Source: a virus (lineage: Duplodnaviria; Caudoviricetes). From it: a DNA stretch of 64,000 bases. Shown piece by piece: positions 39,306-43,119 of this stretch (position 1 is its first letter; each line of letters opens with the position of its first letter). Where the stretch lies: positions 6,001-70,000 of IMG/VR virus record IMGVR_UViG_3300037722_000708. The stretch is one strand, 5' to 3'. The translations under genes and the position numbers were made by a program. The notes below the pieces were generated by a model. It saw only the letters and a program-made list of their open reading frames with translations. It had not been told where the DNA came from and did no database searches.

Positions 39306-40100
39306 TTATTTTCTGGGTTTGTGGCTTTCGCACAAGTACTGGCCGGTTTCAACTTCTTGGTTGCACACCGCACACCGCGCAAAGTTTCTAAGATACTCGT
39401 TGTACGCATCGTATAAGTCTCGCTGTGTTCGCTCCATATGAGGCAGCCACGGCTTGTCCTGTCCTGCAAAGAAAACAATTCGCGCGTCTTTTGGTACAGC
39501 TCCGAGTATATTTGAATACTGGTAGCAGCCATCTGCCTCACCCCAAGTGGCCTCACCTGGAATCTTATGTGATATCCAAGCTTGATCTGATCCTGCGTAC
39601 TTCTTTCCATTAGGTTGTACACGGCTATTTGCTACTTGTGGGGAGGTTGTAGGATCAAAGTCATCCCATACTCGAGCCCTTGCGCCCGCTCTCATCATCC
39701 ACATAGAGCCGTTGTAGGGAGCAGCCCAGCCCTGCATTATTTTGAAGTCCTCGCCACCTTCAAACAGTGAATCTATGTTCTTCAGTATTACAAGGTCTAG
39801 ATCAATGGAGACAAATTTTTTGCCAAACAGCGCCTCTGCTTCCTTGGAGAAAGCGTATAAACGTCTATAGCAATTGGGTTTCGCGCCCCTGTTAGCTACT
39901 GGAAAATGATCCCACAATGGTATAACCTCTATCCGGTCATCGAGGCCGCCAGGATCATCCGTAACGCAAATAAGCCGGAAGGGCATTGTCACGTTAGCTT
40001 TCAACATTCTATAAAGGGCTAGAACATGATTAGAATTGTAGTTTCTGCGCCACTGTTGTTTTGCATCTTTGTGCCATTTCCAGCAGACAAAAGTCAGCAT
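39306..40100 (-). CDS. GT-A fold glycosyltransferase
   Basis: FVCWKW, FRLICVTDD, SIDLDLVI.KNID DxD motif, GSDQAWI, IVFFAG..KPW. Confidence 0.8.
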   Translation of the reverse strand: MLTFVCWKWHKDAKQQWRRNYNSNHVLALYRMLKANVTMPFRLICVTDDPGGLDDRIEVIPLWDHFPVANRGAKPNCYRRLYAFSKEAEALFGKKFVSIDLDLVILKNIDSLFEGGEDFKIMQGWAAPYNGSMWMMRAGARARVWDDFDPTTSPQVANSRVQPNGKKYAGSDQAWISHKIPGEATWGEADGCYQYSNILGAVPKDARIVFFAGQDKPWLPHMERTQRDLYDAYNEYLRNFARCAVCNQEVETGQYLCESHKPRK

Positions 40101-40840
40101 TTAATCTTCTCCCATTTAAAACGTATAGGATTTATGGGGGCAAGCAACTTCTGCATCTTTTTTCTCTGCAAGATGTCGTGGTACTGTTTGTCCCGGGGTA
40201 AATCAGCTGTGTAACTGTCAACTCCTGGCAGATCACCGTGATAGCGGATCAGCCGCACGTCCTCCATTATCTCTAGCGGTGCTATGCTGTATAATGCTTT
40301 GAGCAAAGGCCCGTCCCCGCCATAACAGCCACAATAATCCTCATCATAGCCACCAGCACACCAAAAATTGGTCAACGTTGTGAGGAATTGGTTCACAGGC
40401 ACTTTGTCATCCGACTCAAGACGTGCGCCCATCTTTATGCCTTGAGGTTTATAGTGCCTCTGTACGCTGAGATCTCGGGTCAGAATTCTTTTTAGATCAT
40501 GTTTCAGCAAGAGCCTATCCATGTCCAAGAAGAAAGCCCATTCCGTCTTGCACTCTTTGGCTCCAAGATTCCTCGCACCATGCTGGTTCCACGGTATATC
40601 GTCAATTACGCGATACAAGGTCAGTTGTTTTCTCAGCTCTTCAGAAATACCGAACTGTTGGATTATCTCAAAGGCTGTCTCAGATTGTGGGCTGCAATCA
40701 TCTACAAGAATAAAATCAACATAAGGCAGCAGCTCGCTATATTCTTCCCATTGAGGTAGTGTGTGCTTAAATAGCATCAGCGGGTTGCGGTAGTATGGCT
40801 GGATGAGAGTTATTCTACGCATTTTCTCACCCGCCAGCAA
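40094..40840 (-). CDS. Glycosyltransferase (GT2/GT7-like)
   Basis: ILVDDCS, WNQHGARNLG, LDMD and GGYDEDYCG.YGGD motifs. Confidence 0.85.
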   Translation of the reverse strand: MLAGEKMRRITLIQPYYRNPLMLFKHTLPQWEEYSELLPYVDFILVDDCSPQSETAFEIIQQFGISEELRKQLTLYRVIDDIPWNQHGARNLGAKECKTEWAFFLDMDRLLLKHDLKRILTRDLSVQRHYKPQGIKMGARLESDDKVPVNQFLTTLTNFWCAGGYDEDYCGCYGGDGPLLKALYSIAPLEIMEDVRLIRYHGDLPGVDSYTADLPRDKQYHDILQRKKMQKLLAPINPIRFKWEKIKC

Positions 40841-41397
40841 ACTCCTCGTAAGGTGTCAAAAGTGGAGTTTTTATTATCTACGGGCCATTCCTCAGTTCCA
40901 AAAAACTCAGTGACCGCTTTATTCACACCGCCCCATTTGTAATCATCTCCCGCCATAACTCCATCTGGTTTTATTTTTGGCCACCAAGCGGCAAGATCGG
41001 CTTTCACATTCTCGTAGTCGTGTGCTGCATCCAGTAGCAAGAAATCAATTGTACCATCTTCAAACTGTTCCGCCGCCTTAACAGACTCCATTCTCAAAGG
41101 AATAACAACACTGTCTACAGGTTCAATGTTCTTAAGAAAGGTTTCGTATAGTGTGCCATTCTGCACATCTATGTCCTGGTGGTGTGCCGGCTCGTCAGAT
41201 CCCTCCCAAGTGTCCACAACAGTGAATTTTATATCTTTGCCAGAATTCAGAATAGACACTCCCATGAAAGCTGCTGACTTGCCTTTCCAAGCGCCTACCC
41301 CAACAAACACAGCGCCATTTTTAGCTTCCGCCACTGCATCTCGGTAGAAAGGAATAAAACGGCTCCAGCCATGTATCTTCTTATAAAAGTGCTCCAT
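40810..41397 (-). CDS. Class I SAM-dependent methyltransferase (Methyltransf_24-like)
   Basis: VGVGAWKGKS, VVDTW.GS, LDAAHDYENV..DL..WWPKIKPDG.MAGDDY. Confidence 0.88.
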   Translation of the reverse strand: MEHFYKKIHGWSRFIPFYRDAVAEAKNGAVFVGVGAWKGKSAAFMGVSILNSGKDIKFTVVDTWEGSDEPAHHQDIDVQNGTLYETFLKNIEPVDSVVIPLRMESVKAAEQFEDGTIDFLLLDAAHDYENVKADLAAWWPKIKPDGVMAGDDYKWGGVNKAVTEFFGTEEWPVDNKNSTFDTLRGVCWRVRKCVE

Positions 41398-42262
41398 TTA
41401 AAATCTCCACAGCCATGTCGAACATGTGCCCACCATTAAGCTCTGTTCTTGAAAAATCATTTTTATTAAATACGGGGCAACATGCATATGCATGAGTAGT
41501 CCAGGAGCCAGATATCTCTAGAACAAGCGGCTTGTCTTCTTTAAAAACAAAATCAAAAGCTATCCATTGAGAGCCTATTCTGTCTGCTATCTCTACTGCA
41601 AGTTCAGCGCAAGCGCGTTCCTTACCATTCTCTAAGCCCTCAATAAACGAAAAATTCCCAGATCCAGATGCAAAAGGCTTGTCTTCCCTGTTCTTACGTA
41701 TCAAACCAAAGATGTACTTACCGCATATAATTATCCGGTAATCGCAATCATTGTTCGCCACAAATTCTTGCCAGTACAGATAATCTGTTTGTACATTGCC
41801 GTAGGACAAAATAAGTCCACCTGCAAATACAGCCTCTATCTCTCGCTCTGCCTCGACCCTATTGTTGACCATACATACATTTGCAGAACCTGCACCACAA
41901 GTTGCTTTCGATATAAAAGGATAAGTCATATGGGCAAGAGCGTCGTAAGCTTCTTGTTTGGACGTCCACACATTTGTTTTTGGCAAGTAATCTTTGAGAT
42001 AGGCAAGCTGTTTTACCTTATCGTCGTACAACTCGCCATCTATTCTGTTGGGAAGCACAAGCACGTCTCTCTTGTGTAATTGCGCTATAATGTTCTTTGA
42101 AAGTTGCCGCTGTTCCCCTTGTTGTGACAAACGCACAAAAGCTTTTGAACCTTCAGGGACGTCTTCCGCCCATTTAAATAATTTGCAAGGAATACCTGCA
42201 CGGCCACACGCCATTGCAAACTGTTCTCCCCAGTGGCTTCTGTCATTGTGAGCATAGAGCAT
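41381..42262 (-). CDS. RimK-like ATP-grasp ligase
   Basis: DDKVKQL, YPFISKA..GAGS.NV, YWQEFV..N.CDYR, AFDFV and VLEIS motifs. Confidence 0.85.
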   Translation of the reverse strand: MLYAHNDRSHWGEQFAMACGRAGIPCKLFKWAEDVPEGSKAFVRLSQQGEQRQLSKNIIAQLHKRDVLVLPNRIDGELYDDKVKQLAYLKDYLPKTNVWTSKQEAYDALAHMTYPFISKATCGAGSANVCMVNNRVEAEREIEAVFAGGLILSYGNVQTDYLYWQEFVANNDCDYRIIICGKYIFGLIRKNREDKPFASGSGNFSFIEGLENGKERACAELAVEIADRIGSQWIAFDFVFKEDKPLVLEISGSWTTHAYACCPVFNKNDFSRTELNGGHMFDMAVEILNGALL

Positions 42263-42450
42263 TATTGGACCTTTGCTGAATAGTTATTATTCACTTTCTT
42301 TATAGCATAGTCGTAACCGAACTGGAAACCAAAAGTTGCTCCTGCAAAAAAGAAAAACAACAGTGCCACCCTCCACTTAAACAAAATGTTGTTTTGCATA
42401 TTATACCTCCGTCTGTATAATAAGCATAACATAGACTGCCTTCGTAACAA
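42262..42450 (-). CDS. Small membrane protein
   Basis: Hydrophobic segment VALLFFFFAGATFGF; real start likely later. Confidence 0.45.
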   Translation of the reverse strand: MLRRQSMLCLLYRRRYNMQNNILFKWRVALLFFFFAGATFGFQFGYDYAIKKVNNNYSAKVQ

Positions 42451-42456
42451 AGTAGC

Positions 42457-42996
42457 CTACTCTGGGGGAAGACTTAATTCTTTGTTCAAATCTGTGATTA
42501 TAACTGTTGGTAAGTTGTTGGGTATACTGTTGGTAGCTTTGAGAATGAAGGCTTCAGCCTCCGGCCAGACATCGATCGCCTGCTTAACGGTATTAACTGA
42601 GTCCAAAAGAGCTTTGATCTTCACGCGCAATTCTTTACGCTTGTCCATAACTTTTCCTTTTTTACACAAGAAATTATTCACAAGCTCGTTTTCTGGGTCA
42701 CCTTGTTGGAATACGGCTGTGTGTGTACTGCGGTGGTGACTAGCTCTTTTTGTTTCTTTGAGAGGGAAACTTAGCCATCCGTGGGACAGCGTTCTACACA
42801 CAAACGAACCCGTTTCAGGAAGCCAGCCTTTTGGCAAAGATGCCATTAATTTGAACTCTTTTGCGGTGTACTGCATAGTGTAGAGTTTTTCACCTATCTC
42901 CATACGCTCGTCTTCAAGCTCTTTTATTAGTTTACTAAACTTGTGAGCTAGAACTAGGTCCTCTATTTGTTTTCTGTGGCTCTTCGTCAGCTTCAT
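42457..42996 (-). CDS. Nucleotide-modification-associated domain 5 (Nmad5)-like protein
   Basis: MKLTK..R..I N-terminus, LP.GW, and ALLDSV.TVKQ...VWPEA motif recalled for Nmad5. Confidence 0.55.
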   Translation of the reverse strand: MKLTKSHRKQIEDLVLAHKFSKLIKELEDERMEIGEKLYTMQYTAKEFKLMASLPKGWLPETGSFVCRTLSHGWLSFPLKETKRASHHRSTHTAVFQQGDPENELVNNFLCKKGKVMDKRKELRVKIKALLDSVNTVKQAIDVWPEAEAFILKATNSIPNNLPTVIITDLNKELSLPPE

Positions 42997-43086
42997 CTTC
43001 TTCTCCTGGTAATATAGGTTCAAGTTGAATTTTACTGCCATAGCAATGATAAGTTATATAGCACATGTTGTTTCTCCTTATCTTTA

Positions 43087-43119
43087 ATTATAGCAGGTAA
43101 AGTGTTAAAATTTAATTAA
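43087..43119 (-). promoter_or_regulatory. CtrA-type promoter
   Basis: TTAA-N7-TTAAC, 11 nt, TATAAT (TGCTATAAT). Confidence 0.7.

Follow-up and report, generated by a model that had tools for sequence, protein, structure and literature searches.

Glycosylation cassettes of mycobacteriophages are the described systems closest to the locus presented here. As relayed by later papers, the glycans made by those of Corndog, Che8 and Myrna are reported to sit on the C-terminal ends of capsid and tail-tube subunits (Freeman et al., 2023, via PMC12619734 and PMC13313380). In Corndog, gp34 is followed by gp35-38, which encode a methyltransferase and then three glycosyltransferases and lie two genes ahead of the gene annotated as major head protein. 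Here we describe four genes, encoding an ATP-grasp ligase, a methyltransferase and two glycosyltransferases, which follow an Nmad5-family gene at positions 39306-43119 of a 64,000-nucleotide stretch of viral DNA (Duplodnaviria; Caudoviricetes; positions 6,001 to 70,000 of IMG/VR record IMGVR_UViG_3300037722_000708), referred to as the window throughout. The record is 70 kb long and ∼90% complete, carries nearly all of its window genes on the minus strand and belongs to a Nanhaivirus-like siphophage. By analogy, we lean towards placing the four-gene cassette among the phage virion-glycosylation cassettes, from which it is set apart by a RimK/LysX-like ligase coupled to a glycosyltransferase.

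As in Corndog, an S-adenosylmethionine (SAM) methyltransferase and several soluble glycosyltransferases are clustered, and relatives of the cassette in other phages occupy the corresponding stretch between the portal or minor head genes and the protease or capsid genes. Corndog gp37 gives a weak match to the profile of the cassette GT2 (26.5 bits), whereas no homology is detectable to the cassette's GT8-like glycosyltransferase, methyltransferase or ATP-grasp enzyme; orthology with the mycobacteriophage cassette was rejected because the Methyltransf_24 (MT24) and GT8-like profiles match none of gp35-38. The cassette further differs by its additional ATP-grasp enzyme, often fused to the GT8-like protein, and by its carriers, which are uncultured environmental phages and not actinobacteriophages; the copy in the window also lies outside the head operon. 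For the physical union of a glycosyltransferase and an ATP-grasp enzyme, a mechanistic model is provided by Cj1438 from capsule biosynthesis in Campylobacter jejuni HS:2, where a GT2 domain is fused to an ATP-grasp domain that forms an amide at the C6 carboxylate of a glucuronic acid residue (PMC11800379). Its ligase is TupA-like, its partner a GT2 and its acceptor a capsular polysaccharide, whereas the cassette pairs a RimK/LysX-like ligase with a GT8-like partner.

An initial annotation of the locus, made from the nucleotide sequence without database searches, had listed five contiguous minus-strand genes as Nmad5, a RimK-like ligase, a methyltransferase and two glycosyltransferases, and both their positions (open reading frame (ORF) list, Pfam and PHROG searches) and their identities (family searches) hold up. 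The genes overlap or abut, and one further ORF of 62 codons lies among them; overlaps of 17 nt between ligase and methyltransferase, 31 nt between methyltransferase and GT2 and 7 nt between GT2 and GT8-like gene make it plausible that the five form one operon. The first cassette gene (41381-42262, on the minus strand like every window gene located below) encodes a carboxylate-amine ligase of the ATP-grasp superfamily similar to RimK, LysX and ArgX (293 aa; PF08443, 27.9 bits against a cut-off of 21, 2e-6). It is followed by a SAM methyltransferase of 195 aa (40810-41397) of the Methyltransf_24, cation-dependent O-methyltransferase-like type (PF13578, 68.9 bits against 26.3, 8e-19), whose family profile finds small-molecule cation-dependent O-methyltransferases as its best matches in the PDB (5e-7); on these matches we rejected the PHROG label 'DNA methyltransferase' for this gene. 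The third protein (40094-40840, 248 aa) is an inverting glycosyltransferase of family GT2, with Pfam matches that are above cut-off but marginal (PF00535, 24.7 bits against 23.3) or barely above it (PF10111). In the PDB, a profile of its family finds the GT2 domain of heparosan synthase B (2e-11), TarP (4e-7) and GmaR (8e-6), and the aspartates of its DxD motif, D106 and D108, are invariant.

The last protein (39306-40100, 264 aa), the core gene product of the cassette family, maps to phrog_1962 (7e-12) and reaches no Pfam family at E 0.01 or better, PF01501 (Glyco_transf_8) included; a precomputed PF01501 match is present in 2 of 120 homologs among the matches listed. A 19-sequence profile of its family finds glycogenin in the PDB (1e-5), as does a Foldseek search with its AlphaFold 2 model (predicted local distance difference test, pLDDT, 89; 7e-8, TM-score ∼0.56). 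The family has an invariant DxD motif (D100, D102), an invariant or nearly invariant GSDQ, and a C-terminal G-x-x-K-P-W motif in which G213, P217 and W218 are invariant and K216 is conserved in at least 90% of sequences. Judged from profile and model, we predict this protein to be a retaining GT-A glycosyltransferase of the GT8/glycogenin type. Both GT8 and the GT2 domain of heparosan synthase include uronosyl transferases. None of the cassette proteins is assigned to a family of membrane proteins by its Pfam and PDB matches; the comparison did not include a prediction of transmembrane segments.

The ATP-grasp enzyme is predicted to have a RimK/LysX-type fold, as its AlphaFold 2 model (pLDDT 94) retrieves ArgX, LysX and RimK as best Foldseek matches (E 1e-14 to 1e-12, TM-score 0.68-0.73). 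Like these, it would form an acyl-phosphate and then an amide with the amine of an amino acid; unlike them, it falls far below the curated NCBIfam cut-offs (TIGR00768, 45.1 bits against 143.4; TIGR02144, 36.6 against 275.6) and is joined to glycosyltransferases, and neither S6 nor a LysW-like carrier was found as a partner among the annotated recurring neighbours, although no dedicated search was made. Its family is small (34 protein clusters), and ten GT8-like/ATP-grasp fusion proteins were found, five in IMG/VR loci (L003, L004, L005, L007 and L017) and five as further database proteins. In one of the ten (P0159, 653 aa), the ATP-grasp domain is nested inside the GT8-like domain, and a separate protein (P0160, 1636 aa) combines TPR repeats and GT4 domains with a C-terminal ATP-grasp domain of the window ligase's family. 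Because of these fusions, the ligase can be expected to work on, or beside, what a glycosyltransferase produces. An 861-aa ORF in L003 that looked like a triple fusion was rejected as over-extended and in another frame; the real product there is a GT8-like protein fused to an ATP-grasp domain, and the minor head gene that comes next is separate.

A profile of the ATP-grasp family retrieved 36 loci from IMG/VR; a scan with the single protein retrieved none there, and neither blastn of the region nor tblastn of the ATP-grasp protein gave a match in 50,697 cultured phage records, Dinoroseobacter phage R5C included. A GT8-like gene was detected in 32 of the 36 loci, nearly always adjoining the ligase, and MT24 and GT2 genes in ∼12, about a third; within 10 kb, no gene of the 36 matches the window's Nmad5, DpdA or Que proteins. 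The recurrent order is large terminase, portal, minor head, ATP-grasp, in some cases methyltransferase, GT2 and nucleotide-sugar epimerase, then GT8-like, protease/scaffold and major capsid protein, with variants in which the cassette stands between portal and minor head, directly after the major capsid protein or directly before the terminase. In the 33 loci with a called and placeable ATP-grasp, GT8-like, MT24 or GT2 ORF, a head gene is recognisable in 27, lies within 2 kb in 20 and is found on both flanks in 13. At least four portal families (phrog_146, phrog_21, phrog_332 and phrog_156) are represented among the carriers, so that separate lineages must have arrived at this arrangement more than once. 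The closest ATP-grasp relative placed on a contig (L045) belongs to a locus with all four genes in the window order, immediately upstream of the portal gene.

The GT8-like family is far more widespread, with at least 616 protein clusters and at least 428 IMG/VR stretches. In the best 80 of its loci, the GT2-then-GT8-like pair occurs 58 times, an FkbM-type methyltransferase 29 times, MT24 11 times and the ATP-grasp six times; terminase, portal or protease genes often adjoin, and none of the 80 contains a match to the window's Nmad5, DpdA, QueC, QueD, QueF or FolE. Strong homologs of the GT2 (8e-71) and the GT8-like protein (3e-91) are encoded by the cultured siphophage 'Tetraselmis viridis virus S20', within a nine-gene island of glycosyltransferases and methyltransferases that follows the portal gene, the protease gene and a gene for a 433-aa hypothetical protein, possibly the capsid gene, and directly precedes the head-closure gene. 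On this distribution, the ATP-grasp, methyltransferase, GT2 and GT8-like genes rather probably constitute a self-contained mobile cassette, displaced in the window to the early/middle region. Contigs from three further sediment metagenome runs carry the same phage sequence letter for letter; the contigs of the four runs include no variant without the cassette, and no RNA run is listed among those that contain the sequence.

Further genes accompany the cassette in its various homes. Four loci add a nucleotide-sugar epimerase with 5u4q as its strongest PDB match and 6zl6/6zla as the second strongest, the latter being entries for a UDP-glucuronic acid 4-epimerase. Two genes of the S20 island are annotated as alpha-2,3-sialyltransferases. 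In several lineages (L037, 9240-9836; L024, 8502-9215; and relatives), the cassette is flanked by genes for proteins of 190-250 aa, whose families show a GxGPS/NG motif and match MptE-like proteins (DUF115) faintly; these and the S20 genes may be Maf-like or sialyltransferase-like transferases. One lineage (L008, 447-1046; L009, L015 and L016) has, two genes ahead of its minor head gene, a gene for a deoxynucleoside monophosphate (dNMP) kinase (PF21448), and one cassette carrier is classed as a provirus.

The Nmad5-family protein that precedes the cassette (42457-43041, 194 aa) maps to phrog_1965 and matches PF18757 with 67 bits against a cut-off of 27 (3e-18; 63.7 bits in a six-frame search), its residues 16-192 covering model positions 1-206; it has no sequence relative in the PDB, and the ESM Atlas returned only other Nmad5 clusters. 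The gene has a Tad3-like gene on one side and the cassette on the other, and dpdA is 12 kb away. Phage R5C, a Nanhaivirus and the nearest cultured relative (55% identity in PolA, 69% in the major capsid protein), encodes a homolog, gp113 (28% identity over 209 aa), and Nmad5 thus appears to be a backbone gene common to the two phages and separate from the mobile cassette. In the Yuavirus phages SN1 and Aergia, Nmad5 stands between aGPT-Pplase1 and the thymidylate synthase (TS)-like hydroxymethylase of the thymidine-hypermodification cluster. In PhiJL001 (AY576273.1, 13637-16120), it adjoins as gp23 a T6-like DNA glucosyltransferase (gp22, annotated as such) and a TS-like hydroxymethylase (gp24), a putative cluster for glycosylated hydroxymethyl-pyrimidines with Nmad5 inside. 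These clusters of the Mesyanzhinovviridae (M6 and SN1, with 5-NedU, and PhiJL001) have in common with the window an Nmad5, the closest member of the family, which there stands beside a TS-like hydroxymethylase and group-transfer enzymes; the window, unlike them, has no TS-like hydroxymethylase, no aGPT-Pplase annotation and no T6-like glycosyltransferase. On the other hand, R5C has its Nmad5 alongside DpdA, Acinetobacter phage Alexa has one with neither DpdA nor a TS system and outside any modification cluster, and in Dhillonvirus the gene lies near the capsid gene, likewise outside a modification cluster; a point mutation in it there escapes the Tmn defence, while its deletion left Tmn susceptibility not abolished (PMC11846954). 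The association of Nmad5 with base-modification loci, on which the initial annotation had drawn, stands for the hydroxymethyl-pyrimidine loci of Yuavirus and PhiJL001, and Nmad5 is also found in phages with neither system; the protein seems to accompany several base-modification systems or none, and to be specific to no single one.

Phage 7-deazaguanine DNA modification combines DpdA with preQ0/preQ1 genes, with tailoring by DpdM and DpdN (PMC6884629, PMC10516641). The window encodes FolE, QueD, QueE, QueC, QueF and a DpdA-like protein (phrog_887, 5e-46), interleaved with replication genes further upstream and 12-18 kb from the cassette. Given this full preQ1 pathway and DpdA-like gene, dPreQ1-type DNA, as in those systems, is a reasonable expectation and a free amine on the DNA is plausible, and it was from this premise that the initial annotation had proposed an elaboration of DNA preQ1 by the cassette. 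The co-occurrence check that it had suggested was carried out by six-frame searches of whole records, covering 45 records with the cassette or its GT2-GT8 core (25 in a first set and 20 in a second), 12 of them at least 90% complete. DpdA was found in three of the 45 (2/25 and 1/20), QueC in two (2/25 and 0/20) and either protein in none of the 12; Nmad5 was found in none of the 25 first-set records, and a TS-type hydroxymethylase in none of 26 (these 25 and the window's own record). A search of the same 26 for TET (PF12851) also matched nothing, a weak negative as it matched nothing in the controls either. The positive controls for Nmad5, for the TS homolog (in three phages) and for DpdA (in R5C) were recovered. 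Conversely, R5C shares with the window a syntenic primase-helicase-que-dpdA-polymerase block and has Nmad5, que genes and DpdA, but has no GT8-like gene and no ATP-grasp match, and thus lacks the cassette. Cassette, deazaguanine pathway and Nmad5 therefore appear to be distributed independently of one another, and the best explanation for the adjacency of Nmad5 and the cassette is that the latter, a mobile unit, inserted behind a gene of the phage backbone. The proposed elaboration of DNA preQ1 is not borne out, the cassette occurring overwhelmingly in phages without dpdA or queC.

The analysis shows which domains the proteins have, that the cassette is mobile, that it is distributed without regard to dpdA, que genes and Nmad5, that it usually resides in head-assembly operons, and that GT8-like and ATP-grasp domains occur fused. 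On this basis we favour, with moderate confidence, a reading in which the cassette makes a methylated glycan on virion proteins, possibly one bearing a uronic-acid amide, and in which Nmad5 belongs to the backbone and is unrelated to it. Glycosylation of the virion or of the host surface had been named in the initial annotation as the alternative to base modification, and the head-operon habit and the independence from dpdA and Nmad5 now favour it. In the proposed mechanism, the inverting GT2 and the retaining glycogenin-like GT8 would build a short glycan from host nucleotide sugars on serine, threonine or tyrosine residues of a virion protein, with the capsid protein, the tail tube protein or both as candidate acceptors, and the methyltransferase would O-methylate a sugar. 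The ATP-grasp enzyme, acting physically with the GT8-like enzyme, would convert a carboxylate via an acyl-phosphate into an amide with an amine; most plausibly, the carboxylate would be that of a uronic acid in the glycan, and the amine would come from an amino acid or some other compound. We infer the virion-protein acceptor from the head-operon position, the parallel with Corndog and the lack of a known DNA handle in the carriers, and propose the O-methylated, amidated uronic-acid glycan because of the fusions, the Cj1438 precedent, the epimerase and the uronosyl transferases in GT8 and heparosan synthase; that the virion-protein glycan carries an ATP-grasp-made uronic-acid amide is, on its own, a tentative proposal and on balance improbable. 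Weak hints at glycan sites come from the window's own structural proteins: compared with R5C, its major tail protein (5971-7197) has a 9-residue C-terminal extension, RPVANDAST, and its major capsid protein (9787-11013) ends in AASS, so that the DAST and AASS ends are candidates. The major capsid proteins of cassette carriers have short, variable, serine-rich C-terminal tails, some ending in glutamate.

Several observations weigh against this reading. In the window, ∼26 kb separate the cassette from the head genes, and it comes directly behind Nmad5, past the genes for replication and anti-defence, so that the argument from head operons draws on relatives and not on this phage. The slot after the minor head gene is itself a general accessory-gene site, as PhoH (11959-12657) fills it between minor head protein and scaffold in the window and likewise in R5C, where many phages hold the cassette; the position is therefore suggestive and no proof of a capsid target. 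The modelled ATP-grasp structure is closest to ligases acting on protein C-termini (RimK, LysX and ArgX), not to a TupA-like uronate amidoligase. GT8-like GT-A enzymes can extend DNA-linked glycans (bioRxiv 10.1101/2023.12.21.572611), and the Nmad5 beside a T6-like DNA glucosyltransferase in PhiJL001 is the best argument for a role of the locus in DNA modification with dPreQ1 as its substrate.

According to this last idea, put forward in the initial annotation, the cassette and Nmad5 would together elaborate dPreQ1 in DNA, the ATP-grasp enzyme acylating the 7-aminomethyl group with an amino acid or sugar acid and the glycosyltransferases and methyltransferase extending the product to a hypermodified 7-deazaguanine. 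Besides the preQ1 pathway of the window and the modification clusters of PhiJL001 and Yuavirus, where Nmad5 neighbours a T6-like glycosyltransferase or aGPT-Pplase, the idea can draw on the placement of the cassette directly behind Nmad5, possibly under a common promoter, and on ATP-dependent amide ligases that hypermodify DNA bases, such as CmoY (PMC12783734). We nevertheless consider it very unlikely, given the DpdA, QueC and Nmad5 counts, the presence of the same backbone without cassette in R5C, the distance of the cassette from dpdA and the que genes, and its usual home in head operons. The derivatives of dPreQ1 described so far are the methyl and formyl forms made by DpdM and DpdN (PMC10516641), from which the ATP-grasp, Methyltransf_24, GT2 and GT8-like set is distinct by the published descriptions of these enzymes, and we found no report of glycosyl- or aminoacyl-dPreQ1. 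A similarly slim chance attaches to the narrower variant in which the cassette was recruited behind Nmad5 in this one phage and, by joining a carboxylate, that of an amino acid or a uronic acid, to the aminomethyl group of dPreQ1 and extending it through the glycosyltransferases and methyltransferase, would make an aminoacyl- or glycosyl-7-deazaguanine unlike any known DNA base. The window also holds a second amide-ligase system, a three-gene operon (26254-28734) of a D-2-hydroxyacid dehydrogenase, a histidine phosphatase and an ATP-grasp enzyme of the L-amino-acid-ligase type (PF18603, 2e-16), which is arguably the better candidate for acylating a dPreQ1 amine.

The cassette might instead modify an envelope glycan of the host during infection (lipopolysaccharide, capsule or a teichoic-acid-like polymer), for example to block superinfection or to avoid re-adsorption to lysed cells. 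Amino-acid amides of uronic acids do occur in bacterial surface polysaccharides, and the GT2 profile also matches TarP, TarS-like and ArnC-type enzymes, whose substrates are wall polymers or undecaprenyl carriers; the window, L008, L009 and L016 have small hydrophobic ORFs ahead of the ATP-grasp gene, and one carrier is classed as a provirus. We regard this as unlikely, as no flippase, polymerase or GtrA/GtrC-type membrane partner is found among the annotated recurring neighbours, the cassette proteins have the non-membrane family matches noted above, and a late head-operon position on mostly non-proviral contigs fits a virion target better. More doubtful is an action of the ATP-grasp enzyme in the manner of RimK and LysX directly on a protein carboxylate, for instance by adding amino acids to a head protein at its C-terminus or on an acidic side chain, with the glycosyltransferases modifying the added residue or acting independently: its closest structural and profile matches do ligate amino acids to protein carboxylates, and the carriers' capsid proteins do end in short variable tails, some in glutamate, but the repeated fusion of ligase and glycosyltransferase, once nested, points to a glycan or nucleotide-sugar substrate, and both the score of 45 bits against a RimK-family cut-off of 143 and the lack of a LysW-like carrier gene among the annotated recurring neighbours speak against it. 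The least probable of the alternatives is glycosylation of DNA in all carriers through a handle other than deazaguanine that has yet to be recognised. Phage GT-A enzymes glycosylate DNA in diverse ways (bioRxiv 10.1101/2023.12.21.572611; PMC13326640), and the dNMP kinase of L008, L009, L015 and L016 could be counted in its favour; all known routes, however, need a TS homolog or TET/5mYOX, which the 26 records lack in each case, the TET search being the one without a positive control.

The region 5' of Nmad5 (43042-43119) is an AT-rich promoter candidate. It contains TTAA-N7-TTAA at 43105-43119, 12 nt upstream of the TATAAT in an extended -10-like TGcTATAAT and thus near the -35 position. The initial annotation had called the operon CtrA-driven. 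The Tad3-like gene upstream shares its TAA stop codon in part with the first TTAA; in the window as a whole, the motif occurs eight times against 2.5 expected, and five of the eight cluster in a 2-kb, AT-rich and gene-poor region (20690-22715). A scan with the sigma-70 consensus found no site in 43042-43119, and sigma-70 and terminator scans of 38-45 kb gave nothing beyond chance. The window's PolA is equally close to those of a roseophage and a Pseudanabaena phage (cyanophage), and in R5C the gap upstream of the Nmad5 homolog is 11 nt, too short for a CtrA box. Resting on a single AT-rich motif that overlaps a stop codon, with no equivalent region in R5C, control by CtrA is unsupported.

Between Nmad5 and the ligase lies the small ORF mentioned above (42262-42450), which was not listed in the initial annotation. 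It has 62 codons when read from a TTG, or ∼45 aa from an internal ATG, encodes one hydrophobic helix, and its stop overlaps the ATP-grasp start; Pfam and PHROG searches gave no family match, and its status as a real gene is uncertain. The small hydrophobic ORFs found 5' of the ATP-grasp gene in L008, L009 and L016 are unrelated to it. Directly upstream of Nmad5, the Tad3-like gene (43112-43732) encodes a homolog of the Thoeris inhibitor (PF25185, 2.8e-33, residues 2-115) with a C-terminal extension of ∼90 aa, and two genes upstream lies an Xpt/Gpt-like purine phosphoribosyltransferase (44122-44568; NF006613, 3.9e-29, below cut-off), which could salvage the guanine freed when DpdA exchanges bases or could use a deazapurine as substrate. 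Elsewhere in the window, FolE (57135-58520) carries an intein (PF14890), and the 1241-aa large terminase (15181-18906) has its N- and C-terminal halves split by ∼540 aa that match DnaB/primase-type PHROGs and look like an intein insert.

To our knowledge, virion glycosylation has been shown experimentally in actinobacteriophages only. If the cassette does glycosylate virion proteins, as we favour, such modification would not be peculiar to that group and would be carried in environmental phages by a widespread mobile GT2/GT8-like cassette, present on hundreds of IMG/VR contigs. The cassette would also bring an extra type of enzyme, an ATP-grasp ligase fused to a glycosyltransferase, with a chemistry undescribed on phage particles. 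For the deazaguanine field, the outcome is a useful negative, in that the cassette is not to be counted as a dPreQ1-tailoring pathway. Capsid sugar coats influence antibody recognition, stability and possibly host-defence sensing.

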